Assembly: GCA_964642475.1 (NCBI GenBank)
Contig: CAZXRC010000003.1
Span: 46,393 to 110,392, forward strand
DNA length: 64,000 nt
Direction of reading: 5' to 3'
Source of the DNA: an uncultured Gemmatimonadaceae bacterium
Lineage (GTDB): Bacteria > Gemmatimonadota > Gemmatimonadetes > Gemmatimonadales > GWC2-71-9
The notes below the pieces were generated by a model that made no database searches, was not told the DNA's origin, and was given only the letters and a program-made list of their open reading frames with translations. Position 1 is the first letter of the stretch. Every line of letters starts with the position of its first letter. Positions 4,047-62,714 of this stretch are shown piece by piece. The position numbers and the translations under genes are program-made.

Positions 4047-5773
4047 GCCGGCCTCCGCTTCCGCACGAAGGCAAGGAACTCATCCAGGCTCCTGGCGTTC
4101 AGCACATCCTCCCGGGTCAGCCACCCTTTGCGGGCCATCGCTACGCCGTAGTCGACGTGCCGCAGGCCCGGGATGTTGTGGGCATCGGCACCGATGGATA
4201 TCGTCACCCCACCATCGCGCGCCTGGCGCAACAACCGCCAGTCGAGATCGAGTCGGTGCGGATCGCCATTGATCTCGATCGCGACGCCGGTTCGCGCCGC
4301 CTTCTCGAAGACCGCCTGGAGATCGAGCGGATAGGGGTCCCGGGAGAGGAGGAGCCGTCCGGTCGGGTGACCGATGATCGCGAGATAGGGGTTGTCCATC
4401 GCGGCGAGCATCCGACTGGTCATCTCGTCCCGGGTGAGCCCGAAGCGGCTGTGGATCGAGCCGATGACGAAGTCGAGCCGGCGCAGGATTGCGGTGTCAT
4501 AGTCGAGGGCGCCGTCGGCCAGGATGTCGGCCTCGACGCCCTTGAGCACCCGTATCCCGGTGAGCCGCTGGTTCACGGCGTCGATTTCGTCGGCCTGGCG
4601 CAGGAGGTCGTCGGGGGTGAGTCCACCGGCGTAGGCCGCGGCCTTGCTGTGGTCGGTGAGACCGACATAGCTGTAGCCGGCGTCGCGGCAGGCGCGGGCC
4701 AGCTCTTCGATCGACGTGGTGCCGTCGGAGTAGGTGGAGTGGCAGTGGAGAAAGCCGGCGAGGTCGCCACGCTCCAGGAGCCGCGGCAGCGTACCCGCCA
4801 AGGCCGCCTCGATCTCGCCCCGGCCCTCCCGCAGCTCGGGCGGGATGACCGGGAGGCCCAGGGCGGCGTAGAAGGCCGGTTCGTCGGCGGTGGCCACGAA
4901 CTCGCTTCCTTTCCAGAGCGCCGCCCCGTCGAGGCCGTAGCCCTTCTGGCGGGCGTGGGCGGCGAGCTGGGCGACATGGGCTTCACTGCCGGTAGCCTGC
5001 ACCAGCACCGCCCCGGCGTTGCGCGGGGTGGTGACGATGACCTCGGCCTGGGCGCCGCCGCTCACTCGGAGCGTCACCCGGCGTTCGTCCTTTCCCGAGA
5101 ACTCGTGCACCCCCGGCAGCTCCCCGATCACCCGGAAAATCTCGGCCGGGGCTACGTTGGCCACCAACACCACCACGATGTCCCGCACCACTTCCATCCG
5201 GCGACGGATATCGCCGGCAATCTCGGCCCGGAGGACCCCGGGGAGCGCGGCCAGCGCGTCGCGGAGGCCCTCCGCCTCTTCGGCGGCGTGATGGGCCAGC
5301 TTGAACGCGCTGGCCTGCCGCAGGAAGGCGATGCCCTTGAGGATGTTCTCGGCGGTCTTCGGGCCGAAGCGGGGGAGTTTGGCCAGCCGCCCGTCGCGGG
5401 CCGCGGCCTCGAGCTCGGGGAGCGAGTCGATGTCGAGCGACTCGTGGATCTGCCGGATCTTGGCCACGCCCAGTCCGCCGATCTGCAGCATCTCCACCAG
5501 GCCGGGGGGCACCTGCTCCCGCAGTTCCTCGAGAAGGCTAGAGCGGCCGGTGGCCACCAGCTCCTGCACGATCTGCAGGGTGGCCGGTCCCACGCCCTTT
5601 GTGCCCGCCAACGATCCGTCGGTCAGGGCCTCCGCCAGCTCGCCCGGCAGACTCGCGACCGCCCGGGCCGCGGTCCGGAAGGCGCGCACCCGGAAGGGGT
5701 TCTCGGCTTTGAGCTCGAGGAACGCGGCGATCTGTTCGAGGACGCCGGCGACGGCCTTCTGGTCCATGCTCAT
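4043..5773 (-). CDS. polX: DNA polymerase/3'-5' exonuclease PolX (Pol beta-like domain + PHP domain)
   Basis: N-terminal HhH/Pol-beta-like region. C-terminal PHP domain motif HCHSTYSDG...GLTDHS...SIGADAH. Length is 576 aa. Confidence 0.92.
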   Translation of the reverse strand: MSMDQKAVAGVLEQIAAFLELKAENPFRVRAFRTAARAVASLPGELAEALTDGSLAGTKGVGPATLQIVQELVATGRSSLLEELREQVPPGLVEMLQIGGLGVAKIRQIHESLDIDSLPELEAAARDGRLAKLPRFGPKTAENILKGIAFLRQASAFKLAHHAAEEAEGLRDALAALPGVLRAEIAGDIRRRMEVVRDIVVVLVANVAPAEIFRVIGELPGVHEFSGKDERRVTLRVSGGAQAEVIVTTPRNAGAVLVQATGSEAHVAQLAAHARQKGYGLDGAALWKGSEFVATADEPAFYAALGLPVIPPELREGRGEIEAALAGTLPRLLERGDLAGFLHCHSTYSDGTTSIEELARACRDAGYSYVGLTDHSKAAAYAGGLTPDDLLRQADEIDAVNQRLTGIRVLKGVEADILADGALDYDTAILRRLDFVIGSIHSRFGLTRDEMTSRMLAAMDNPYLAIIGHPTGRLLLSRDPYPLDLQAVFEKAARTGVAIEINGDPHRLDLDWRLLRQARDGGVTISIGADAHNIPGLRHVDYGVAMARKGWLTREDVLNARSLDEFLAFVRKRRPA

Positions 5774-6534: not shown

Positions 6535-6562
6535 GTGACCGCGCGCTGCTCAAGCTAACGGC

Positions 6563-7390
6563 TTACGGCTCGTGGCCCGGGGCCAGAAACCCGCCGATCA
6601 CCCTCACGAAATCGCTCGACGCCTCCACATACGGCACATGGCCGCAATTCCTGACCAGGTGGAACTCGGCCCGCAGGCACTGGGCGGTTTCGCGGGCGGC
6701 CTCCCACGGGATCGGGTCCTCTTCCCCGTGCAGCACCAGGGCCGGAATCGTGAGGCGCCGAAGAGCCGGTCGCAGGTCGTAGTCTCCCAGACTCTGCCAG
6801 ACTTCCGCTCGGGTCCGCTCGGTGACCCGGAAAGGTGTGAGCGACACCGCACGGGCCGGGTCGCGAAAGTAGCCCGCTACCGCCAACTCGAAGAGCCGGG
6901 CCGCGTGCGCCGCCGGGTCGCGCTCGCGAAGGCCGCTCTCCCGGAGCGCCTGCCGGGCTGCCTGGAGCTCCGGTGTCATGGTGCGGGCCTGGAAGCGGCG
7001 CTCGAACTCGTCCCGCGCGGGGCGCCAGGCCGGTGCGGGTGAGATCAGGGCCATCCGCTCCACCCGATCCGGGTGCTCCAGGGCGTAGAGCTCCGCCAGC
7101 AGCCCTCCCCAGCTGTACCCGGCGAGGGTCAGGCGTTCGAGCTGCCACCGCTGCCGCAGCGCCTCGAGATCGGCCACGTGCTCCCGCCAGCCGACCGGGA
7201 CTTCACGCCCGACGGGGGACTGTCCGCCTCCCCGCTGGTCGTAGTAGATCAGCTCGTGGCCGTCCGCCAGGGCATCGAACCCGGGCCGCAGATAGTCGTG
7301 ATGCGCACCGGGACCGCCGTGCAACACCACTACCGGCGGGCCTGCCCCGATCCGCCGCTCGAACAGCTCGACCCCGTTCACGCCGGTCAT
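6563..7390 (-). CDS. Alpha/beta hydrolase (proline iminopeptidase-like)
   Basis: HGGPG oxyanion motif, nucleophile elbow GYSWGG, and C-terminal catalytic His (NCGHVP). Confidence 0.88.
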   Translation of the reverse strand: MTGVNGVELFERRIGAGPPVVVLHGGPGAHHDYLRPGFDALADGHELIYYDQRGGGQSPVGREVPVGWREHVADLEALRQRWQLERLTLAGYSWGGLLAELYALEHPDRVERMALISPAPAWRPARDEFERRFQARTMTPELQAARQALRESGLRERDPAAHAARLFELAVAGYFRDPARAVSLTPFRVTERTRAEVWQSLGDYDLRPALRRLTIPALVLHGEEDPIPWEAARETAQCLRAEFHLVRNCGHVPYVEASSDFVRVIGGFLAPGHEP

Positions 7391-10866: not shown

Positions 10867-11934
10867 CTACCGCGGGACCAGGTCGGTTTCCTTCGTCAGG
10901 CGCCGGGCCAGCGCCGCCAGCAGCCGGGCCGTGCGATCGAGGTCCTCCAGCACCACCATTTCGTTGGGGCTGTGCATGTAGCGCAAGGGCACCGATACCA
11001 GGGCGGTGGCCACCCCTTTGAGCGCGCTGAAGATGTTGTCGGCGTCGGTGCTGGTTCCCCGCGGCGCGGCTTCCAGGGTGCAGGGAATGTGCTCGGCCCT
11101 GGCGGCGTCGAGCAGCAGCTCTACCAATACCGGGTTGATCGAGGCCCCGCGCGAGATCACCGGGCCTCCCCCCAGCTTGTAGTCGCCGTGCTTGCGCTTC
11201 TCGACCCCGGGATAGTCCGTCGCATGGGTCACGTCCACGACAACGGCGACGTCGGCTTCGATGACCCGGGCGCCGGTCCGGGCGCCGCCGCCGGTGTAGC
11301 CGATCTCCTCCCGGGTGGTGGCGGCGGCGGTGACCCGCACGCTGGGTCGATCCTGGGCGAGGTAGCGCAGGGCCTCGAGCACCACGAAGGCACCGACCCG
11401 ATTGTCCAGCGAGCGACTCACCAGGCGCCCGTTGGGGAACTCGAGGACCGAGGACGCCAGGACACCGGGATCCCCCACCCGGACCCGGGCTATCGCCTCT
11501 GCCCGGCTGGTGGCGCCGATGTCGATCCAGAGATCGCCCGCCTTCGAGACCTTCTCCCGGTCCTCCTTCTCCATCAGGTGGATGGCCTTCTTCCCGATCA
11601 CGCCGGGCACGGTGCCGCCCTGTCCCAGCAACTGCACCCGCTGGCCCACGAACACCTGATGATCCCACCCGCCGATCGTGTCGAAACTGAGGTACCCCTC
11701 GTCGTCGATGTAGGTGACCATCACGCCGATCTCGTCGATATGGCCGGCGAACATCAGCCGCGGGGTGGCGGCGGGGTTGATCGTCGCGAAGCTGTTCCCG
11801 CTCACGTCGGCCTCGACCCGCTCGGCGAAACTCTGCGCCTCGCTTCTCCAGACGCGCGCCGGGAGGGTCTCATAGGACGATGGGCCCGGGGAATCGAGCA
11901 GCTGGCGCAGGAAGACGTGGGATTTCTGGTCCAT
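10867..11934 (-). CDS. M42 family aminopeptidase (FrvX/CelM-like)
   Basis: 355 aa with M42-type motifs (GHIDEIG, DNRVG, TTREEIG, ...HSPNE). Confidence 0.88.
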   Translation of the reverse strand: MDQKSHVFLRQLLDSPGPSSYETLPARVWRSEAQSFAERVEADVSGNSFATINPAATPRLMFAGHIDEIGVMVTYIDDEGYLSFDTIGGWDHQVFVGQRVQLLGQGGTVPGVIGKKAIHLMEKEDREKVSKAGDLWIDIGATSRAEAIARVRVGDPGVLASSVLEFPNGRLVSRSLDNRVGAFVVLEALRYLAQDRPSVRVTAAATTREEIGYTGGGARTGARVIEADVAVVVDVTHATDYPGVEKRKHGDYKLGGGPVISRGASINPVLVELLLDAARAEHIPCTLEAAPRGTSTDADNIFSALKGVATALVSVPLRYMHSPNEMVVLEDLDRTARLLAALARRLTKETDLVPR

Positions 11935-23595: not shown

Positions 23596-25446
23596 CTACG
23601 TCGAGGGAGGTGTCACCACCGCGCGAATCACGTCCAGCGCCACGCTGGCCCGCCCCATGGGGGCGGCGACCTGCACACCCCGGACCCTGGTCTTCACCGC
23701 GGTGACCATCTCGCGGGCGATCCGCACCCCCTCCGCCAGCCCCTCCTCCTTGCCTCTGGCCGAGGCGGCGCGCATCCGGTCAAGGATCGCCTGCGGTACC
23801 GTCACGCCCGGCACTTCGTTGGCCAGGAACTCGGCGTTGCGCAGGGACACCAGTGGCCAGATCCCGGCAATGATCGGCAGCTTGAGATGGGCGGTCCGCT
23901 CCAGGAACCGGTCCAGCTGATCCAGGTCGAACACCGGCTGGGTCATGGCGAACTCGGCCCCGGCTTCCACCTTCCAGGTGAAGCGGCGAAGCTCCCGGTC
24001 CGGATCGGGTGAGGCCGGGTTCACTCCCACGCCGAGCACGAAGCTGGTCTTGCCGCCGAGCGCGTTGCCGCCGGGGTCGAGACCGCGATTGAGGCGGTGC
24101 ACCAGGTTGGTCAGCCCGATGCTGTCGATGTCGAACACCGCGGTCGCGTCGGGATAGGGCCCCATCTTGGGCGGATCGCCCGTGACGATCAGCAGGTTCC
24201 GGATCCCGCTGGCCGCCGCGCCCAGGAGGTCGGACAGCATGCCAAGGAGATTCCGGTCGCGGCAGGCATAGTGCACCACCGGCTCGAGACCGACCTCCCG
24301 CTGGATCAAGAGCCCGGAGAGCAGCGCGCCCATCCGGCTCTGGGCCCGGGGGCCGTCGGGGACGTTCACCGCGTCCACCCCGGCTGCCTTGAGCTCCCGC
24401 ACCTGGTCGAACATCGGGCGGGGGTCCACGCCCTTGGGCGGCACGATCTCGACCGAGGTCACGAATTCGCCCCGCGCCAGCTTGGCCCCGAAGTGGGAGC
24501 GCTCCGCCAGCGGCACCGGGTCGGCCATGGTCACCAGCGACGGCACCGCGGTATAGCTCGCGCCGTGGCGCGGCGCCACGCTCTTCACGAACCCGGTGAG
24601 CGCCTTGATGTGCTCGGGAGTGGTGCCGCAGCACCCGCCGATGAACCGGGCCCCAGCCTCCACGATCCGGCGGCCGAACTCCGCCATGTACTCGGGGCTC
24701 GCCATGTAGATCTTGCGGTCGCCCACGTCGCGGGGCAGACCGGCGTTGGGCTGGGCCGAGATCGGGACCGTCACGACCCGGGCCAGCTGCTCCACCACCT
24801 CGAGCACTCCGTGCGGTCCGACGGAGCAGTTCACGCCCACCACGTCGGCGCCCATGAGTTGCAGCGCCGGGCCGAAGGTCGCGGGCTCGGTGCCGTAGTA
24901 GGTCTTGCCGTCGGTGCCGACGGTCATCTGCGCGATGATGGGAAGGTCGCTGCGGCTGCGCACCGCGTCGATCGCCGCGTGGATCTCCTCGACGTCGCTG
25001 AAGGTCTCGAGGATGAACCCGTCGACACCGCCCTCGAGGAGGCCGTCGACCTGGCGGGCGAAGGCGGCGCAGGCTTCCTCCCGTGAGGTCTCGCCGAAGG
25101 GCTCGATCCGGATGCCGAGCGGACCGATGGCGCCCGCCACCGCCGCCTTGCCGGTCGCCGCCTCGCGGGCGAGACGGGCCGCCGCGGCGTTGATCTTCTC
25201 GGTGTCCCCCGCCAGGCCGTGGGTGGCGAGCTTCACCGGGTTGGCCCCGAAGGTATTGGTCTCCAGCAGCTCCGCGCCCGCCTTCACATACTCGCGGTGG
25301 ATGTCGCGAATGAGGTCGGGCTGCTTGAGAGCCAGCTCGTCGTAGCAGACGTTGAGGAACACGCCCCGGGCGTAGAGCATGGTGCCCATGGCGCCGTCGA
25401 AGACGTGGGTCCGGCCATCCTTGATGAGTTCGCTGAGTGTCGGCAT
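23596..25446 (-). CDS. yitJ: Bifunctional homocysteine S-methyltransferase / 5,10-methylenetetrahydrofolate reductase (YitJ-like fusion)
   Basis: N-terminal Hcy-binding domain (FDGAMGTMLY, zinc site [10 protein letters not shown]) fused to a C-terminal MTHFR domain. At 616 aa it has the same architecture as B. subtilis YitJ. Confidence 0.88.
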   Translation of the reverse strand: MPTLSELIKDGRTHVFDGAMGTMLYARGVFLNVCYDELALKQPDLIRDIHREYVKAGAELLETNTFGANPVKLATHGLAGDTEKINAAAARLAREAATGKAAVAGAIGPLGIRIEPFGETSREEACAAFARQVDGLLEGGVDGFILETFSDVEEIHAAIDAVRSRSDLPIIAQMTVGTDGKTYYGTEPATFGPALQLMGADVVGVNCSVGPHGVLEVVEQLARVVTVPISAQPNAGLPRDVGDRKIYMASPEYMAEFGRRIVEAGARFIGGCCGTTPEHIKALTGFVKSVAPRHGASYTAVPSLVTMADPVPLAERSHFGAKLARGEFVTSVEIVPPKGVDPRPMFDQVRELKAAGVDAVNVPDGPRAQSRMGALLSGLLIQREVGLEPVVHYACRDRNLLGMLSDLLGAAASGIRNLLIVTGDPPKMGPYPDATAVFDIDSIGLTNLVHRLNRGLDPGGNALGGKTSFVLGVGVNPASPDPDRELRRFTWKVEAGAEFAMTQPVFDLDQLDRFLERTAHLKLPIIAGIWPLVSLRNAEFLANEVPGVTVPQAILDRMRAASARGKEEGLAEGVRIAREMVTAVKTRVRGVQVAAPMGRASVALDVIRAVVTPPST

Positions 25447-25448
25447 TC

Positions 25449-25555
25449 AGTTCCGCGTTCCGAGTGCCGAGTGCCGAGTGGTCGCGAGGCGAACGGGGGT
25501 ATGCCGAGGTCCACCGGCACGCCAGCCCCGCTCGGAACGCGGAACCCGGAACTCG
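25449..25555. repeat. Inverted arrays of tandem heptamers (GTTCCGN/GTGCCGA) forming a long stem-loop between metH and the yitJ-like gene
   Basis: 25450-25480 reads gttccgc gttccga gtgccga gtgccga gtgg. 25531-25555 carries three GTTCCGN units on the opposite strand. There is perfect 15-bp complementarity between 25450-25464 and 25531-25545, with a 66-nt spacer. Confidence 0.8.
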
Positions 25556-25559
25556 CAGC

Positions 25560-29258
<3,699 letters not shown>

Positions 29259-29263
29259 GTTCA

Positions 29264-29386
29264 GGCCGTTGGCCGTTGGCCGTTGGCCATCGGTGTTTCG
29301 GTACAGGTTTGCGCGATCCAACTCCTGGTCGAACCCATCATCGCATCCTCTTCGCCGTCAGCTCCAACGGCCAACGGCCAATGGCC
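29264..29386. repeat. Inverted arrays of tandem GGCCGTT heptamers forming a long stem-loop in the metH leader
   Basis: (GGCCGTT)x3 at 29264-29284. The reverse complement of 29364-29386 is ggccatt ggccgtt ggccgtt gg, which matches at 22 of 23 positions. The spacer is 77 nt. The proximal arm ends 5 nt before the metH ATG. Confidence 0.8.
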
Positions 29387-29389
29387 AGT

Positions 29390-29424
29390 AAGAAACCCCC
29401 GGTTGCGCGACGGCACCCGGGGGG
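29390..29424 (-). terminator. Terminator-like hairpin downstream of the yggT/DUF167 genes
   Basis: The minus strand reads CCCCCGG-(14 nt)-CCGGGGG followed by TTTCTT. It lies about 75 nt after the DUF167 stop. Confidence 0.4.
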
Positions 29425-29499
29425 ATCGGCCGTTTTAGCACTTGTTTAACGTGGCTGCAATAGGCGCAAAGCACCACGACGTCCGTTGTGCCGCGAAAC

Positions 29500-29814
29500 C
29501 TACACCCGCACCGGACCCTCGCCAAGGCCGAACCGCCGACAGATCTCCGCCGGGCTCAGACCCGCCACCTCCACTGTCTTGCGTCTGGAGGTGGCGCCGC
29601 TGGTGATCGCGAGGGCCGATCGCGCGCAGCGCAGGGTGTCGGCCAGGAACCGGATCAGGGCCTCGTTGGCGGCGCCGTCCACCGGCGGTGCGGTGAGCCG
29701 GACCCGGAGTGCCTCCCCATGCAGTCCCTCGATCGCGTTGCGGGAGCCGCGGGGCTGGATGTGAAGCGTGAGCCGGGCTCCCCCGGCGACCGGCACCAGC
29801 CAGGCGCCCGACAT
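29500..29814 (-). CDS. DUF167 (YggU) family protein
   Basis: The C-terminal 104 aa of the 188-aa ORF, from ATG 29814. Typical pattern: L.V...PGA..N.I......L.V.L.APPVDG.AN. It overlaps the yggT stop by 1 nt. Confidence 0.8.
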   Translation of the reverse strand: MSGAWLVPVAGGARLTLHIQPRGSRNAIEGLHGEALRVRLTAPPVDGAANEALIRFLADTLRCARSALAITSGATSRRKTVEVAGLSPAEICRRFGLGEGPVRV

Positions 29815-46139: not shown

Positions 46140-46184
46140 CAGGGTAGCCTCCGGGTCGCCCGAAGCTACTAGATTCCGGGGCCC

Positions 46185-47030
46185 ATGCGCAACCGACCAG
46201 CTGTGCGTATCTGTGCCGTGATCCTGCTGTTGTCCGGGCTGGGTTGGCCCGCACTCCTGGTGGGCCAGTACCAGCCCCGGCAGCTCTCCGCCCTCGCCGT
46301 CGGCGTCCAGCCAGTGGCGGGCTTCCAGCCTGCCCCGAATCCCACACTCCCATTCGCCCCGCTCCCGGCCACTCCCGCCTCACCGGCAGTGATCCGGTGG
46401 TACCACGGGGTGCTGTTCCTGGACGCCGTGGCGGCGTTGTCCCCGCTGGACGAACCGGTGCGGGACGAGGTCCAGCGCGAGCGGACCAATGGAAGCAACG
46501 ATGTGGCCCGGGTGGTCCGGCATGTGGGGCAGCCCGAAGTGTATGCCACGGTCGCGCTCGGGACGGTCGCGGCAGGGCTCCTCGCCGGCGACGCTCGCAT
46601 CACCCGGGCGGGAGCTCGTATCTCCTCCGGGATCGCGGTGGGAGGCCTGGTCAGCACCCTCATCAAGTTGAGCCTCGGCCGACGACGCCCGTTCTCGTCG
46701 GAGGATCAGTACACCTTCGGCCCGTTTACCAAGGCCGACGCCTCCTTCCCGAGCGGGCATACCATGACCGCGTTCGCCCTGGCCACCGGGGTCAGCGACG
46801 AGGTGCATTCGCTCCCGGTCACGATCGGTATGTACACCCTGGCGGCCGGAGTGGGGTGGTCCCGCATGAACGACAACAAACACTGGCTCACCGATGTCGT
46901 GACCGGGGCCGTCATCGGCATCGGCAGCGTCAAGCTGATGAACGGGCGCTGGCGGGTGTTCGGGATCTCGGCGCCGAAACCGCTGCTGGAGCCGGGGCAG
47001 GCAGGGGTGGCATGGAGTGGGGAGTTCTAG
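46185..47030 (+). CDS. PAP2 superfamily (type 2 phosphatidic acid phosphatase-like) membrane phosphatase
   Basis: The three PAP2 motifs: KLSLGRRRP, PSGHT, and SRMNDNKHWLTDV. Confidence 0.88.
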   Translation: MRNRPAVRICAVILLLSGLGWPALLVGQYQPRQLSALAVGVQPVAGFQPAPNPTLPFAPLPATPASPAVIRWYHGVLFLDAVAALSPLDEPVRDEVQRERTNGSNDVARVVRHVGQPEVYATVALGTVAAGLLAGDARITRAGARISSGIAVGGLVSTLIKLSLGRRRPFSSEDQYTFGPFTKADASFPSGHTMTAFALATGVSDEVHSLPVTIGMYTLAAGVGWSRMNDNKHWLTDVVTGAVIGIGSVKLMNGRWRVFGISAPKPLLEPGQAGVAWSGEF

Positions 47031-47044
47031 GACTGTGGGCCATA

Positions 47045-47160
47045 GGCAATGAGCCGTAAGCCGTAAGCCGTAAGCTCCTGCGGTGCACCTTGAGTCCGGG
47101 TCCGAATCGGCGGGACCTTCAGGTGACAACGTTACTGCTTAGGGCTTACGGCTCATCGCC
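47045..47160. repeat. Inverted arrays of tandem GCCGTAA heptamers forming a long stem-loop between convergent genes
   Basis: (GCCGTAA)x3 at 47053-47073. Arm 47045-47068 matches the reverse complement of 47137-47160 at 22 of 24 positions. The spacer is 68 nt. Confidence 0.8.
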
Positions 47161-47184: not shown

Positions 47185-48417
47185 TCACGCCGCCAGCGGC
47201 TCCTCCACCCAGATGTACTCCGGGTCGATGACGCCGGTCGTTTCGTCCCGGATGTGCCACGGCATCCCCGAGACATCCAGCAGCGACATGAAGGGATCGG
47301 GATCGAGTTGCTCGGGGGAGAACACCCCGTGACCCGACCAGGTGCCATTCGCCATCAGCCGCGCGGCGATGACCGGCGGTACCCCGGTCTGGTAGGCGGT
47401 GGCCTGGACGCCCAGCTCGCGCCAGGTCTGCTCATGGCTGGTGACATTGTAGATGTAGAACGACCGCTCGACCCCATCCCGGATTCCCCGGGCCAGCGTG
47501 CCGACGCAGGTCTTCCCCTGCATCCGCCCCGCCAGGGCGTGCGGCTCCGGCAGCAGCGAGACCACCAGGTCGCGCGGGGAGATCTCCACCCCGCCCACCC
47601 GCACCTTGTTCTTCCCGTGGAGGCCGAGGTCCTTGAGGACCTTGAGCGTCTGCCAGGTGGTGTCATCCATGCAGAGCTTGAAGTCCGCGACCCGGAGCCC
47701 CGGGAAGAACATCGGGAGGGTGCGAGCCTCTTCGTGGTCCACGTAGTAGGTGTTCAGCATCCCCAGCTCCGGGAAATTGAAGGGCTCGAACCCGGAGAGT
47801 GCCTCTTCCACATGGTGACGGCCATCCCGCCAGGAGATGGCGCCGCAGGTGCACTCGTCGATGAAGACCCAGGGGCTGAAGGTGGCGAGGAAGCCCGTGT
47901 GGCCCTGGCACACGGAGTTGTCCCCATCCCGGATCCGGAACTCGGTGACCTCGTCCAGCAGGTGCTTGGCCGCGTAGGCGGCGTAGATGTTCGAGGTGCC
48001 CGGATCGGCGCCCATTCCGAGCAGAGCCATGCGCCCCGCCGCGCGGAACCGGGCGTCGAGCGCGAACTGGTCCGGCAACTTGGGGGTGCCGTCGTTTTCC
48101 GCGCCTCCCGACGCCATGTCGATGTAGTCGCAACCCGCCTCGAGACAGGCTTGCATCACCACCAGGTTGGTGGCCGGGAGGGCGGCGTTGAGCAGAATGG
48201 TGGTCCGGGTTTCGGCGATCGCGCGCACCAGCGCCGGGCGATCGCTCGCGTCCAGCGTGAGGGCCCCTACGGCGGGGCTCCCGATCCGTCTGGCCAGGGC
48301 GTCCGCCCGGCCGGGAAGAGCATCAGCGACGACCAGCTGATCGACCTGCGGGTCTTCCGCGAATTTGAGTGCCGACACGGTCCCCACCGCGCCGCACCCC
48401 AACACCATGACTTTCAC
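47185..48417 (-). CDS. Saccharopine dehydrogenase family oxidoreductase (possibly carboxy(nor)spermidine dehydrogenase-like)
   Basis: N-terminal Rossmann motif MKVMVLGCGAVG. Length is 410 aa, with a family-typical C-terminal domain. AGGAG lies upstream of the ATG. Confidence 0.82.
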   Translation of the reverse strand: MKVMVLGCGAVGTVSALKFAEDPQVDQLVVADALPGRADALARRIGSPAVGALTLDASDRPALVRAIAETRTTILLNAALPATNLVVMQACLEAGCDYIDMASGGAENDGTPKLPDQFALDARFRAAGRMALLGMGADPGTSNIYAAYAAKHLLDEVTEFRIRDGDNSVCQGHTGFLATFSPWVFIDECTCGAISWRDGRHHVEEALSGFEPFNFPELGMLNTYYVDHEEARTLPMFFPGLRVADFKLCMDDTTWQTLKVLKDLGLHGKNKVRVGGVEISPRDLVVSLLPEPHALAGRMQGKTCVGTLARGIRDGVERSFYIYNVTSHEQTWRELGVQATAYQTGVPPVIAARLMANGTWSGHGVFSPEQLDPDPFMSLLDVSGMPWHIRDETTGVIDPEYIWVEEPLAA

Positions 48418-48896
48418 AAACTCCTCTTTTCATTGTGACGCGGGTCTCGGTCTGGTGTCCGTTCGGCCAAGAGAGGTACGCGCTACGTTGCGCGCCCATC
48501 TCACGGCCCCCAGGACGACCTCGCCCCCCCCGCATATAGGGGTCGCGACTCAAGGGTGATGTCAGTCGCGAGATCGGATCCTCCGAGTATCGGAGAATTC
48601 AAACACGGCCCCCCCGGCTGGCAGGGGGCCCGCAAGGCCAACCTAGCGCGCCCCCCCACCCCGCTGTCCAGCCTGCGTCGGTAGCGCCGACGGAATCGTG
48701 TTCGGGGGTTGACACCGCGAATCACCAGTGGACCGCTTACCTCCCAACCACTTACCCCTGACCCAGCGACCCGAAGAGAGACCGGCGCCAGGTGGCGATA
48801 ATGAGTCACTGTTTCCGTGGTTTCAGTGATCGAGTCGCCCCAGCCGATACTGAGGGCGGGAGCCCTCTGATCGTCACCGCCCAGGCACAGGACGCA

Positions 48897-51086: not shown

Positions 51087-52125
51087 GTTCGCGCTCGACT
51101 GCGCCCTCGAGGCCGCCCAGCATTCGACCCTCGTGGTGGTTGGGGAGAGCGGATCGGGCAAGACCTCCTTCCTGCGCTACCTGGCCGGGTTGCTGCGCCC
51201 CGAACGGGGGGAGCTCACCGTCGCCGGCGAAACCTGGTGTGACACCGGGCGCGCGATCTGGGTCCCGGCCCATGCGCGGCCGGTCGGCTTCGTGTCGCAG
51301 GACTACGCCCTGTTTCCGCATCTGAGCGCGGCGGACAACATCGGCTTCGGGCTCCGGGCCGTGGGCCTGGACCGGGGGGAGGTCCGGCGGCGCACCGGGG
51401 CGATGCTGGAGCGGTTCGACCTGGCCGCGCTTGCCGACCGGCGGCCGGCGCAGCTCTCCGGGGGGCAGCAGCAGCGCGTGGCGCTGGCGCGGGCGCTCGC
51501 CCTGGATCCGGCGCTCCTCCTCCTCGATGAGCCGCTCTCGGCCCTCGACGTGGAGGCCCGGCACGCGGTACGTACCGAGCTTAAGCGGACCCTCAAAGAC
51601 CTGCCCTGCATCACGGTCTTCGTGACCCACGCACCATTGGAGGCGCTCCTCTTCGGGGACCGGATCGCGGTCATGGAGCGGGGTCGGGTGGTGCAGGCGG
51701 GCGACCAGTTGGCGCTCCTCAAGGAACCGCGATCGCGCTACGTCGCCACCCTGCTGGGTCTCAATCTGCTGCCCGGCCGAGTGGCGTCCCGGGGGCCGGG
51801 CCAGGAAGTGGCGATCCAGACCGAACGGGGCCTGGTGCACGCCGTCACCGATGACCCAGCGGACCGGCTCTTCGTGGTCGTGAGTCCCGAGCAGGTGACC
51901 CTCTCGCTCGATCCACCTGGTGGATCGGCCCGGAATGTCCTGACCGGCACCGTCGCCGAGATCCTGCCCGAGCCGCCCTATGGGGAGCGGGTCCGGGTGG
52001 TCATCGGGCCGGCGCCGGTGTTCGTGGCGGAGGTTACAGCCCAGGCCGCGGGGCAGCTGGGGCTCGCGCCGGGCACGGGCGTGTTCGCCGCCTTCAAGGC
52101 CACCAGTGTCGTGGTCTATTCCTGA
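51052..52125 (+). CDS. modC: Molybdate ABC transporter ATP-binding protein with C-terminal TOBE/Mop domain
   Basis: Walker A GESGSGKTS, signature LSGGQQQRVALARAL, Walker B LLLLDEP. A GTG start at 51052 is proposed; the ORF opens at 50983. Confidence 0.88.
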   Translation: MLRATLQHRLGEFALDCALEAAQHSTLVVVGESGSGKTSFLRYLAGLLRPERGELTVAGETWCDTGRAIWVPAHARPVGFVSQDYALFPHLSAADNIGFGLRAVGLDRGEVRRRTGAMLERFDLAALADRRPAQLSGGQQQRVALARALALDPALLLLDEPLSALDVEARHAVRTELKRTLKDLPCITVFVTHAPLEALLFGDRIAVMERGRVVQAGDQLALLKEPRSRYVATLLGLNLLPGRVASRGPGQEVAIQTERGLVHAVTDDPADRLFVVVSPEQVTLSLDPPGGSARNVLTGTVAEILPEPPYGERVRVVIGPAPVFVAEVTAQAAGQLGLAPGTGVFAAFKATSVVVYS

Positions 52126-53888: not shown

Positions 53889-54155
53889 CCCTGGTGGAGG
53901 GGTGGGCTGTGATCGCGCTCACTCCTCCTCCCCCTGCCCGCTCCTGCTGTAGTCTCCCGTCCTACGATCGCCCTCCGGACCATCCGAGCCATCCATCAGC
54001 GGCTTCCCGATCGTAGCAGAGGGGGCCAAACCCTAGCTTGTCTCCCACGCTGGACGAGCGGCGTCGCAAGACGACCTCCGGCGCCATGACGACGCGGAGC
54101 GGGGATGGCGGGCGGGGGTCGCCCGCCGCCGACCGCCATATCGGGGAGCGGCAAG

Positions 54156-54944
54156 ATGGAGACGCAGCGGAATCGCACGGTGATGGGCGCGGTACTGATG
54201 ATGGCTGGGCTGGCCTCGGCCTGCGGCTACGACGACAATGGCGGCTATGGCGGGGGACCGACCCCGCCGGTCAATGCCCAGGTTGTCACCGCCAGCGGCG
54301 ATCTGGCGGCCGCGCTGGCGCAGTTCCGCGGGCTCCTCGGGGATTCGGCCAACCGGGTGGCGGGGCAGCAGCCCGGCGGCCGGCGGGAGGTCAACTGGGA
54401 CGGGGTGAACGGCGCCATTCTCAATGTCGACACATTCCCGGGCGACCAGTTCAACCGGGTGGTGCCTCGGGGACAGATCTTCACCACTCCCGGCACCGGA
54501 CTGCGGGTCAGCGACAACGCTTTTTTCGACCTGGACCCGAGCGACTCGACCCAGTTTGCTGCGTTCAGCCCCAAGAAGATCTTCGTGGCGGTGGGGAGCC
54601 CGGTCATCGACGTCACGTTCCGGGTAGCGGGGACGGACAGCCTGGCGAGCGTCACGGGGTTCGGTGTGGTGTTCGCGGATGTGGATCAGGCGGGGAGCAC
54701 GACGCTGGAGTACTTCGGGGCCAACGGCGCGTCACTGAAGAAGATCACGGCGCCGGCGCGGAGCGACGCGGCGGGGCACTCCTTCGCCGGGGCGGTGTTC
54801 GAATCGGCCCTGGTGGCGCGGGTGCGGATCACGGCCGGGACGGCCCCCATCGCGCCGGGGGCGAAGGACTTGAGCGCCGGGGGAGTTGCGGACCTGGTGG
54901 CCACGGACGACTTCATTGCCGGCGAGCCGCACCCGATCCAGTAG
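54156..54944 (+). CDS. Hypothetical lipoprotein
   Basis: The internal ATG 54156 gives METQRNRTVMGAVLMMAGLASAC (signal peptide plus lipobox). 262 aa, with no recognised domain. Confidence 0.7.
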   Translation: METQRNRTVMGAVLMMAGLASACGYDDNGGYGGGPTPPVNAQVVTASGDLAAALAQFRGLLGDSANRVAGQQPGGRREVNWDGVNGAILNVDTFPGDQFNRVVPRGQIFTTPGTGLRVSDNAFFDLDPSDSTQFAAFSPKKIFVAVGSPVIDVTFRVAGTDSLASVTGFGVVFADVDQAGSTTLEYFGANGASLKKITAPARSDAAGHSFAGAVFESALVARVRITAGTAPIAPGAKDLSAGGVADLVATDDFIAGEPHPIQ

Positions 54945-54978
54945 AGTCGCGCGAGCTGACCTCGCACTATGGGGACTA

Positions 54979-54999
54979 GCGGGGAGCGGGGAGCGGGGC
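54979..54999. repeat. Tandem heptamer (GCGGGGA)x3, followed by a small GC hairpin
   Basis: gcgggga gcgggga gcggggc at 54979-54999. A hairpin GGGCCGG-GAGG-CCGGCCC follows at 55000-55017. Confidence 0.75.
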
Positions 55000-55126
55000 G
55001 GGCCGGGAGGCCGGCCCCGTGCCTCGCAGGCGGGCTGGTGGTGATTCGGACGCGATCAGCGTAATGTGGGAATGCCGGCCGGCCGCAGCAGTCCGGACCG
55101 GCGGGCGGTCTACCCTGGAGGATGCA

Positions 55127-61953: not shown

Positions 61954-62714
61954 TCCCGGTAGGCGTTGTGGATCGTGTCGATCATGGACCAGAGCATCTC
62001 CAGCTTGAACGCCAGCGCCTCGAATGCCTGCCGTTGGGTCTCCACGGTGGTGCAGTGGTTGCGCACGATGGCCAGGCCGTGGCGCACATCGCGGGGGGCC
62101 TGCACCAGCCGGCTCTTGAAGTAGTCCAGCCCTTCGGGCGGAATCCACGGGTAGTGGCGCGGGAAGGATTCGATCCGCTGGGCGTGGATCCCGGGGGCGA
62201 ACAACTCGGTGAGCGAGGAGGCGCAGGCCTGCACCCACGGCCGGGACTTGCAGAACCAGACGTACGACTCGCAGATGAGACGCACCGCCGGGAGCACGTG
62301 GCGCTCGTCTTCCATCTCCTCCCGCGGTACTCCCAGCGCGATGCCGAGGCGGGTCCACAACTCGATCCCACCTTCGCCCTCGCGAGTACCGTCGTGGTCC
62401 ACGATGCGCTGGATCCACTCGCGACGCACCGCCGGATCGGGGCAGTTGGAGAGGATGGCGCCATCCTTCCGCGGAACCACCCGTTGATAGGCCAGCCGGT
62501 TGGCCACCCATCCCTGGAACTGCCGGCGGGTGAGCTTGCCCTCGTACATGAGCTTGTGAAACGGGTGTTCGACGTAGTAGAGACCGTGGAAGGAGCGGAG
62601 AGCGGTCTCCAGCTCCTCGGGGCTGAGGGGGTGCTCCAGCGTCGGCAACTCGATCCGGTAGTTCCGAGTTCCGAGTTCCGAGTTCCCCGTTTCGACTGTT
62701 GCGCTCATCTCCAC
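61950..62714 (-). CDS. pqqC: Pyrroloquinoline-quinone synthase PqqC
   Basis: YYVEHPFHKLMYEGKLTRRQFQGWVANRLAYQ and the rest of the PqqC fold. The 5' end is uncertain because the first ~20 codons contain the GTTCCGA tandem repeat. A TTG or CTG start near 62650 is possible. Confidence 0.9.
   Translation of the reverse strand: MEMSATVETGNSELGTRNYRIELPTLEHPLSPEELETALRSFHGLYYVEHPFHKLMYEGKLTRRQFQGWVANRLAYQRVVPRKDGAILSNCPDPAVRREWIQRIVDHDGTREGEGGIELWTRLGIALGVPREEMEDERHVLPAVRLICESYVWFCKSRPWVQACASSLTELFAPGIHAQRIESFPRHYPWIPPEGLDYFKSRLVQAPRDVRHGLAIVRNHCTTVETQRQAFEALAFKLEMLWSMIDTIHNAYRE
62661..62686. repeat. Tandem heptamer (GTTCCGA)x3 plus a partial unit at the pqqB-pqqC junction
   Basis: gttccga gttccga gttccga gttcc at 62661-62686. 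This is the same unit as in the 25450 element. No inverted partner was found nearby. Confidence 0.8.

Follow-up and report, generated by a model that had tools for sequence, protein, structure and literature searches.

Between metH and a yitJ-like gene of an uncultured Gemmatimonadaceae bacterium (GenBank assembly GCA_964642475.1) lies a long stem-loop, here called element 1, whose arms are arrays of tandem heptamers. The window that we analysed is the whole stretch of 64,000 nucleotides around it (contig CAZXRC010000003.1, positions 46,393 to 110,392). Element 1 is very likely one copy of a family of intergenic palindromes with stems of tandem heptamers, sometimes octamers, and this family is abundant in Gemmatimonadota and neighbouring phyla. 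Its arms have been held while nearby neutral sequence was almost randomised, which, on the sequences compared, indicates constraint on the arms and none on the loop. The explanation that we favour as a whole, at a probability of about 0.45, is a palindrome akin to repetitive extragenic palindromic (REP) sequences and their doublets (REPINs), which would be maintained by selection and form a stable intercistronic hairpin. The heptamer-array class is not tied to methionine genes.

The metH/yitJ junction comprises the following features:

23596-25446, minus strand: yitJ-like gene, bifunctional homocysteine S-methyltransferase / methylenetetrahydrofolate reductase of 616 aa (PF02574 and PF02219)
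25450-25482, minus strand: 3' arm of element 1 on the mRNA, CCA CTCGGCA CTCGGCA CTCGGAA CGCGGAA C, about 4.6 units
25483-25530, minus strand: loop or spacer between the full arrays of element 1, with a near-neutral rate of change
25531-25555, minus strand: 5' arm of element 1 on the mRNA, CGAGTTCCGG GTTCCGC GTTCCGAG, i.e. three GTTCCGN units
25560-29258, minus strand: metH, cobalamin-dependent methionine synthase, its start at 29258 set by where homology begins

The metH stop codon (25560-25562) and the yitJ ATG (25446-25444), both on the minus strand, leave a gap of 113 nt that element 1 fills. A preliminary description of this DNA had read the gap as nearly all one stem-loop abutting the start codon; the codon positions agree with this and homology backs both starts, that of yitJ (MPTL...) matching its orthologues. 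An exact-protein look-up found no identical record for the yitJ product. The array coordinates, unit counts, 15-bp pairing and 66-nt spacer given there are likewise all present in the sequence. Tandem Repeats Finder reports period 7 at 25449-25480 (4.6 copies) and at 25533-25552 (2.9 copies), while 25450-25464 and 25531-25545 are complementary at 15 of 15 positions with 66 nt between these perfect arms. The loop holds a decayed GTGCCGG unit that pairs with CTCGGCAC units, and the 3' arm stops 3 nt short of the yitJ ATG. None of GGAG, GAGG or AGGA occurs within 20 nt upstream of that ATG, so the reported lack of a Shine-Dalgarno sequence stands. The predicted folding energy is -62.0 kcal/mol for the sense and -62.9 kcal/mol for the antisense strand, with z-scores against dinucleotide shuffles of -2.3 and -3.4, respectively. 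Element 1 is no artefact of assembly, since independent assemblies from NCBI, JGI, ENA and Logan contain it as well. Nor does it look like an intrinsic terminator, as no T-run follows either arm and a terminator scan makes no call, and the Rfam 15 covariance models, relaxed thresholds included, gave only generic hairpin (miRNA-model) matches to the heptamer elements at E of about 2-3.

Comparison with related loci and contigs (labelled Lnnn) separates the arms of element 1 from everything around them. Positions 1-6 of the units, the core GTTCCG, are conserved in 251 of 258 cases (97%; 43 units from 7 lineages), while position 7 is C, A or G. The loops (42-52 nt) share about 60% identity and are barely alignable, with significant homology between the window and L162 (z = 3.3) and between L168 and L169 (z = 4.8) and in none of the remaining pairs; an inversion of the loop between the window and L162 was considered and dropped, the inverted alignment reaching only z = 0.9. 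Fourfold degenerate sites of yitJ retain 0.55-0.63 identity to the window, against 0.44 at saturation. It is this contrast, between unit positions conserved at 97% and loops and fourfold sites changing at a near-neutral rate, from which we conclude that the arms are held and the loop drifts. Pairing is conserved too, its absence in relatives being one of the outcomes that the preliminary description had set against its own reading: RNAalifold finds 30 consensus pairs across 5 lineages, mostly invariant, of which three show two-sided changes (one being the GTGCCGG/CTCGGCAC pair of the window), and element 1 folds in relatives with z-scores of -3.9 to -5.3. The number of units per arm varies between 2 and 4 among lineages, and the units of a 3' arm have become homogenised within a genome (CGCGGAA x4 in four lineages, CTCGGAA x3-4 in two), which indicates turnover of the slippage type. 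Judged from these alignments, the arrays turn over by gain, loss and homogenisation of units.

The same comparison bears on the origin of the element at this junction. The window belongs to Gemmatimonadales by its yitJ orthologues. Scans of genomes and metagenomes yielded closest yitJ relatives of 84% and 78% identity, and a protein search added relatives of 86-93%. In most relatives, including L001-L016 and L190 (84% yitJ identity), the stop of metH overlaps the start of yitJ or directly adjoins it (ATGA, GTGA, TAGCGTG), and three relatives at 82% identity carry unrelated metH/yitJ spacers of 75-90 nt that fold no better than shuffles (z of about 0). Relatives below about 85% identity show one or the other of these two arrangements. 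Element 1 itself, with GTTCCGN/NCGGAAC units in both arms, occupies the same junction in a clade with 86-93% yitJ identity: in L162, L167, L168 and L169-171, in L163-165 and L166, whose contigs finish inside its 3' array, and in L189, whose contig begins 45 nt before the yitJ ATG and retains two weakened 3'-arm units. Because metH and yitJ overlap in the more distant relatives, we regard ATGA or GTGA overlap as ancestral and element 1 as a clade-specific insertion; on this sequence comparison, some 110 nt arose there in the lineage ancestral to a small clade of Gemmatimonadales. L161 (92% yitJ identity) lacks the element and shows an ATGA overlap; by fourfold identity it groups with the window and L163. 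Its state is most simply read as a secondary deletion that re-used the ATG of CGATGA, which still lies upstream of the element in other lineages. The 5' arm begins 0 nt past TGA in five lineages and 5-7 nt past the stop in the window, the distance from the 3' arm to the yitJ ATG ranges from 3 to about 17 nt, and a Shine-Dalgarno sequence precedes that ATG in no lineage compared. The 5' arm directly past TGA in several lineages made a target-site duplication or TGA as an insertion target worth considering; both were rejected, as elements 2 and 3 described below are unlike this and no duplication is found.

Some further observations concern the reading frames and contig ends at this junction. 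The metH stop shares bases with a start codon (GTGA in the window; ATGA in L162, L167, L168 and L169) from which a frame runs through element 1, and a stop codon lies 0-6 nt upstream of the yitJ ATG in every lineage (TGA or TAA, and TAG in L189). In the window, this frame closes at UGA with AUG directly after it, which may be a reinitiation relay or chance. We rejected a conserved relay open reading frame (ORF), because at 70% GC a frame of about 38 codons should stay open in about half of cases, and the frames vary by lineage. The contigs L163, L164, L165, L166, L168 and L189 begin inside or beside heptamer arrays (at position 1 in L165, L166, L168 and L189), and three Logan assemblies from separate runs break at one identical base, 30 nt upstream of the yitJ ATG. 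The graph is probably broken by perfect arrays that exceed the assembler k-mer in length, and such elements are therefore expected to be under-represented and mis-counted in short-read metagenome-assembled genomes. The breaks were not taken as a sign of multi-copy dispersal, since a perfect tandem array longer than the k-mer alone suffices to break a de Bruijn graph.

Element 1 has company in the window. The preliminary description had pointed to like-built elements at two further loci and to a recurrence of the GTTCCGN heptamer; all three are real, the latter without an inverted partner. They are listed here with smaller arrays and the riboswitch leader of metH:

29262-29389, minus strand: sister element 2, arms GGCCRTT x3.5 (29363-29389) and AACGGCC x3 (29262-29293) around a 69-nt loop
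47040-47165, no strand assigned: sister element 3, AGCCGTA x3.4 (47049-47077), a 54-nt loop and TTACGGC-type units (47132-47153)
62658-62691, no strand assigned: lone array AGTTCCG x4, its unit as in element 1
54976-55002, plus strand: lone array AGCGGGG x3, 32 nt past the stop of the gene at 54090-54944 and running into a GC-rich hairpin
6553-6571, minus strand: mini-array AGCCGTA AGCCGTT AGC, 2.4 units, from the unit family of elements 2 and 3
29390-29424, minus strand: terminator-like hairpin CCCCCCGG-N14-CCGGGGG followed by TTTCTT, read from the sequence as the riboswitch expression platform
29414-29487, minus strand: aptamer of a SAM-II riboswitch (S-adenosylmethionine, SAM; SAM_alpha, RF00521) upstream of metH, 42.8 bits against a gathering score of 36

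Elements 2 and 3 fold clearly better than dinucleotide shuffles (z of -4.9 to -6.4). Element 2 (-62.8 kcal/mol sense, -67.3 antisense) is wedged between the U-tract of the riboswitch and the metH ATG and finishes 3-5 nt before the latter. Element 3, whose inverted repeat reaches about 10 nt past its arrays, is flanked by two convergent genes, which encode a PAP2 protein (46173-47030, plus strand) and a saccharopine dehydrogenase (47185-48429, minus strand). On one side of the lone array at 62658-62691 is the stop of a Lactamase_B_2 gene (62745), on the other the conserved part of a TenA-family gene, the TenA domain beginning at residue 43 of the longest ORF there, and the mini-array at 6553-6571 overlaps the TAA stop of an alpha/beta-hydrolase gene (6563-7390). 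Within the window, GTTCCGN thus occurs at 2 loci and RGCCGTW at 3. None of the units GTTCCGN, GGCCGTT and AGCCGTA contains a G3 run. The flanks of the three elements show no direct target-site duplication, and their spacers recur nowhere else in the window or in the related loci and have no motif in common. The only tRNA of the window, tRNA-Pro (GGG), is at 51348-51435.

Among relatives, L162 and L168 have element 2 at the orthologous site, built from units akin to those of the window (GGCCGTY and AGCCGTY), and outgroups such as L190 are without it. At the yggT-DUF167 junction, L162 (5553-5640) and L168 (4300-4412) carry an element of the GTTCC family where the window has a TGATG overlap (29795-29805). 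L162 has in addition an AAGTGAG-family pair upstream of a gene taken to be a dcuC homologue, and the L168 contig starts in an AAGTGAG-family array, apparently at the same site. The unit family is site-specific in the sense that each orthologous site retains its own. The riboswitch beside element 2 is more widely kept: the SAM-II aptamer and terminator leader is found across the order and conserved across Gemmatimonadota, with a hairpin and U-tract equivalent to 29390-29424 in all relatives and the leader usually running straight into the metH start. The simple terminator scan misses this hairpin, as its loop exceeds 8 nt. The same leader lies directly 5' of yitJ instead in L024, L025, L029, L030 and L039-L041.

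Period 7 stands out wherever arrays were counted. Counting exact arrays of three units or more, the window has five of period 7 and not one of period 5, 6 or 8-12. We further pooled 1.56 Mb, comprising the window and 160 related loci from genomes and metagenomes (Gemmatimonadota plus some Acidobacteriota), and allowed at most 1 mismatch in at least 3 units. In this sample there are 73 arrays of period 7, compared with 1 after a mononucleotide shuffle, and 22 of period 8, compared with 0 after shuffling, with period 5 at chance level. Merged, they make 28 inverted pairs (arms 10-340 nt apart) and 47 lone arrays, such that about 40% stand in inverted pairs. There is a clear polarity: the purine- or G-rich version of the unit comes first, as 5' arm, in 22 elements and second in 3, with 3 ties; the two-sided binomial p of about 1.6e-4 is optimistic, some elements being related. 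All array loci of the window fall outside conserved coding sequence; two lie inside the longest possible ORFs, but upstream of the onset of homology or of the Pfam domain. On a crude gene map at most 24% of the window is non-coding, and for all five independent loci to fall there by chance has a p of about 8e-4 or less. A random distribution with respect to genes, which the preliminary description had named beforehand as speaking against its reading, is thus not what we find in the window.

Units vary between genomes and yet recur within one, e.g. GACGGTCG at three sites of L008, ACACAGAG in L043 and GGGGAGT in L105, where three copies of one 80-nt palindrome, spacer included, lie within 8.7 kb (516-594, 1529-1652 and 4757-4835). 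The L105 copies have arms of GGGGAGT x2 and a homologous inner stem and loop, with the 5' half tandemly duplicated in one of them, and the trio resembles a dispersed family like REPs or MITEs (miniature inverted-repeat transposable elements). Just downstream of yitJ in L043 (7861-8124), four short hairpins rich in GC make up a segment of 180 nt that is bracketed by two copies of a hairpin with octamer arms (units ACACAGAG, the loop AAAACCATCTTTT being the same in each), and a third, lone ACACAGAG array is at L043:1335. L008 has, at 1519-1617 and 11427-11899, very long octamer arrays (GACGGTCG, 12 perfect units) and a 470-nt composite of many degenerate units on either side of a central region. 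In L022 (10891-11031), the octamer arms TAAGGCGG / TACCGCCC enclose a terminator-like hairpin, AACGGGGATCC...GGATCCCCGTT then T's, so arrays can flank an ordinary terminator. A mini-array of GCTGATG x2.4 in L162 (6166-6189) covers the annotated metH start codon right after element 2, so that start codons can fall inside such arrays. Arrays of GTTCCGN x4 were also found in 15 IMG/VR viral contigs (L172-L186; GC 0.47-0.66) from other taxa, mostly unpaired and often adjoining arrays of other heptamers (e.g. L176, L180, L183, L184). They do not identify a vector.

The preliminary description had been unable to name a class for such hairpins, but the kind is already known as heptamer microsatellites and their convergent pairs. 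Long simple-sequence repeats consist of units of 5-11 nt in three or more head-to-tail copies, a description that the arrays fit, and the turnover of unit number and variants between relatives at one site is likewise typical of them. Rehm et al. 2015 (PMC4692102) described 186 and 183 arrays of the GGGAATC type in two Xanthomonas genomes (X. campestris and X. axonopodis), intergenic, mostly within 50 bp of ORF ends and transcribed, for which no function was found. There, 70-75 convergent pairs are capable of forming stem-loops, the seventh position varies, and arrays at one intergenic site differ between species in length and sequence; a 2007 finding cited in the same paper has heptamers as the most over-represented long microsatellites and attributes them to polymerase slippage. 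The elements described here resemble the Xanthomonas pairs in their tandem heptamers (typically 3-4 units there), the share of about 40% in convergent opposite-strand pairs, the G-rich arm coming first, the intergenic position near ORF ends and the variable position 7. They differ in that one G-tract unit (GGGNATC), interpreted as G-quadruplex-forming in sets of four, dominates the Xanthomonas genome, whereas the units GTTCCGN, RGCCGTY and AAGTGAG of Gemmatimonadota, a different phylum, have no G-runs and several families coexist; conservation of arms against neutral loops, shown here, is not part of the Xanthomonas description. Cyanobacterial heptamer repeats (STRR type, GGGGAYT in Nostoc) and the Beggiatoaceae TAACTGA arrays, which end a few nt before start codons (MacGregor 2015; PMC4679880), share the period of 7, genome-specific units and an intergenic position, often a few nt before starts. 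However, these are mostly lone direct arrays, with one inverted pair in the orange Guaymas Beggiatoaceae (BOGUAY) and few in Nostoc. A literature search returned nothing linking Gemmatimonadota to such heptamer repeats.

REPINs are also similar in overall build. They are REP doublets with inverted conserved arms and unique hairpin-forming spacers, occur in several groups per genome and persist vertically (Bertels & Rainey 2011; PMC3337134, PMC3116915). Like them, the elements measure about 90-130 bp, have two conserved inverted arms around a less conserved spacer, fold as a whole into a hairpin and are intergenic, and both arms of an element come from one group. REP arms are nevertheless imperfect palindromes of 16-25 nt, while the arms of element 1 are direct tandem repeats that are not self-complementary, and REPINs depend on a single-copy gene for a REP-associated tyrosine transposase (RAYT, a Y1 transposase) that is usually flanked by repeats. 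The earlier statement that the elements are neither REPs or bacterial interspersed mosaic elements (BIMEs) in the strict sense, nor enterobacterial repetitive intergenic consensus sequences, nor CRISPR is hence sound: the arms are not palindromic, and the units are 7 nt long and head-to-tail without spacers, not repeats of 23-50 nt with unique spacers of similar length. MITEs differ from the window elements by target-site duplication and homologous internal sequence, although the L105 element does have a shared interior. In Escherichia coli, REP/BIME stem-loops act as stable intercistronic or 3' hairpins that can protect upstream mRNA from exonucleases and shift the expression of neighbouring cistrons. 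They are a functional analogue only, their sequence family and origin being different from those of element 1.

Our proposal for the mechanism is more tentative than the explanation as a whole. Selection might act on the long hairpin of the metH-yitJ transcript, in a REP-type role in stability or processing combined with coupling. A hairpin of about -55 to -67 kcal/mol would form in the transcript and, as an intercistronic stem-loop of the REP type, could serve as a barrier to 3'-to-5' decay or as a processing site that determines how stable one cistron is relative to the other. The stem would unite the metH stop, at the beginning of the 5' arm, with the yitJ AUG at the end of the 3' arm, where unassisted 30S binding should be poor for want of a Shine-Dalgarno sequence. 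A ribosome terminating at metH would have about the first ten base pairs open, corresponding to the ribosomal helicase footprint. It would thereby melt the base of the stem and free the segment just upstream of the yitJ AUG; yitJ initiation would then depend on ribosomes finishing metH, and the ancestral translational coupling would be kept and made obligatory. Occlusion of the ribosome site by the stem, as proposed before, thus stays plausible, but coupling to metH translation seems more likely than a regulated switch. Control by methionine or SAM would be supplied to the operon by the upstream SAM-II riboswitch and terminator and not by element 1, which is not metabolite-responsive as far as can be read from its sequence.

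Selection is invoked because neutral concerted evolution would not slow change of the consensus. An alteration confined to one arm weakens many base pairs together, and the partner arm then has to undergo a corresponding sweep. As different sites keep different units, a single sequence-specific reader would be insufficient, and structure is the simplest common denominator. Against this stand several points. The RNA-level role of the hairpin is one that we infer from sequence, and elements 1 and 2 have no folding advantage on the sense strand, so a role at the DNA level is equally compatible. Covariation support for an RNA structure is weak, only 3 of the 30 pairs having two-sided changes, and pairing is conserved mainly because the sequence itself is. 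Position 7 is free although it lies within the stem, which selection on pairing alone would not predict; neither this free position nor the purine-first polarity is accounted for by a hairpin. The nested relative L161 lost element 1 with no obvious harm, and coupling cannot be a general argument because element 2 adjoins a start codon with no upstream translation to melt its stem. Unit counts taken from short-read metagenome assemblies may also be imprecise. An asymmetry between G-U and A-C mismatches was considered for choosing between the RNA and DNA levels and set aside, there being no sense-strand advantage and too few mismatches.

Other explanations draw on the same data. The arrays might be a neutral by-product of slippage, lengths near 7 nt being slippage-prone, inverted partners arising by hairpin-templated strand switching and the products persisting where harmless. 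Slippage is the published explanation for the prominence of heptamers among over-represented long simple-sequence repeats in many bacteria (cited in PMC4692102, PMC4679880), and it would suit the variation of unit number and variants among relatives, the homogenised 3' arms, presence and absence differing between relatives at three junctions and the GTTCCGN arrays of unrelated viral contigs. We nevertheless consider it unlikely, given arms conserved at 97% in 6 of 7 positions beside near-saturated loops and fourfold sites, one unit kept by both arms, unit families that recur at several loci and at orthologous sites, and the polarity bias of 22 to 3. About as improbable, in our judgement, is a selfish, non-autonomous element like a REPIN or MITE, copied by a transposase encoded elsewhere, with the arms conserved for enzyme recognition. 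The architecture matches that of REPINs (PMC3337134), the L105 copies with their homologous spacers and the repeated octamer hairpins of L043 look dispersed, genomes hold several unit families, and about 110 nt arrived at a junction formerly without a spacer. Yet the three window elements lack target-site duplications, their spacers are unique in all sequence compared, their arms are not palindromes like those of REPs, and orthologous sites long keep their own unit family, which indicates vertical inheritance over re-insertion. No credible match came from a tblastn search of 1.79 Mb with approximate RayT and IS200 TnpA query sequences, a weak result given such queries and a tiny sample per genome.

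A locus-specific regulator of yitJ translation, whose stem opens and closes with methionine, SAM or B12 status, had been suggested for element 1 and must be judged very unlikely. It would explain why the 3' arm stops 3 nt before an ATG without a Shine-Dalgarno sequence and why a clade keeps the hairpin at this junction, but the loop, where alone a ligand or partner could bind, has not been conserved, Rfam offers no match, and the distance from arm to ATG varies between 3 and 17 nt. Moreover, the same architecture recurs between unrelated genes, at the PAP2/saccharopine dehydrogenase and other junctions, the element is missing in most relatives and lost in L161, and the operon already has its SAM-II riboswitch. 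A DNA-level element receives hardly more credence from us: duplex or cruciform would bind a nucleoid, topology or replication protein, as BIMEs bind gyrase and integration host factor, or a single-strand-binding protein would read one heptamer per domain. The symmetry of the strands in folding, a six-base core plus free seventh position that resembles a recognition motif plus spacer, a polarity independent of gene orientation and the place of element 3 between convergent genes would all agree with this; the units differ by site, however, so that either more than one reader or a reader indifferent to sequence would be required, the helical repeat of DNA is not matched by a period of 7 bp, and there is no candidate binding protein. 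Unlikely as well, though less remote than these two, is that heptamer-array palindromes are a distinct class of cis-elements, maintained by selection independently of RAYT-type mobilisation, in which the 7-nt periodicity itself is functional. A factor may read one unit per heptamer on single-stranded nucleic acid before the hairpin closes, which would account for a core of six conserved bases with a free seventh and for the polarity with purines first, or the periodic arms may give a register-tolerant hairpin. If true, the elements would insulate or couple neighbouring cistrons in lineages where many junctions have no Shine-Dalgarno sequence.

Heptamer repeats have been known since 2007 as the most over-represented long microsatellites in many bacteria, and hundreds form convergent pairs in Xanthomonas. 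What is new here is the phylum, units that are not of the G-quadruplex type, several coexisting unit families, the polarity statistic and the constraint on arms set against neutral loops. As Gemmatimonadota units cannot form G-quadruplexes, the G-quadruplex reading from Xanthomonas is unlikely to be a general explanation. The metH/yitJ locus amounts to a natural experiment, with the element seen in some eight lineages in which neutral sites approach saturation, the arms held and the loop drifting, and this constraint is evidence against mere slippage noise. Since contigs break at the arrays, the elements affect metagenome assembly. In Gemmatimonadota, their positions between a riboswitch terminator and a start codon, or between formerly overlapping cistrons, matter for start-site calling and for models of operon expression.

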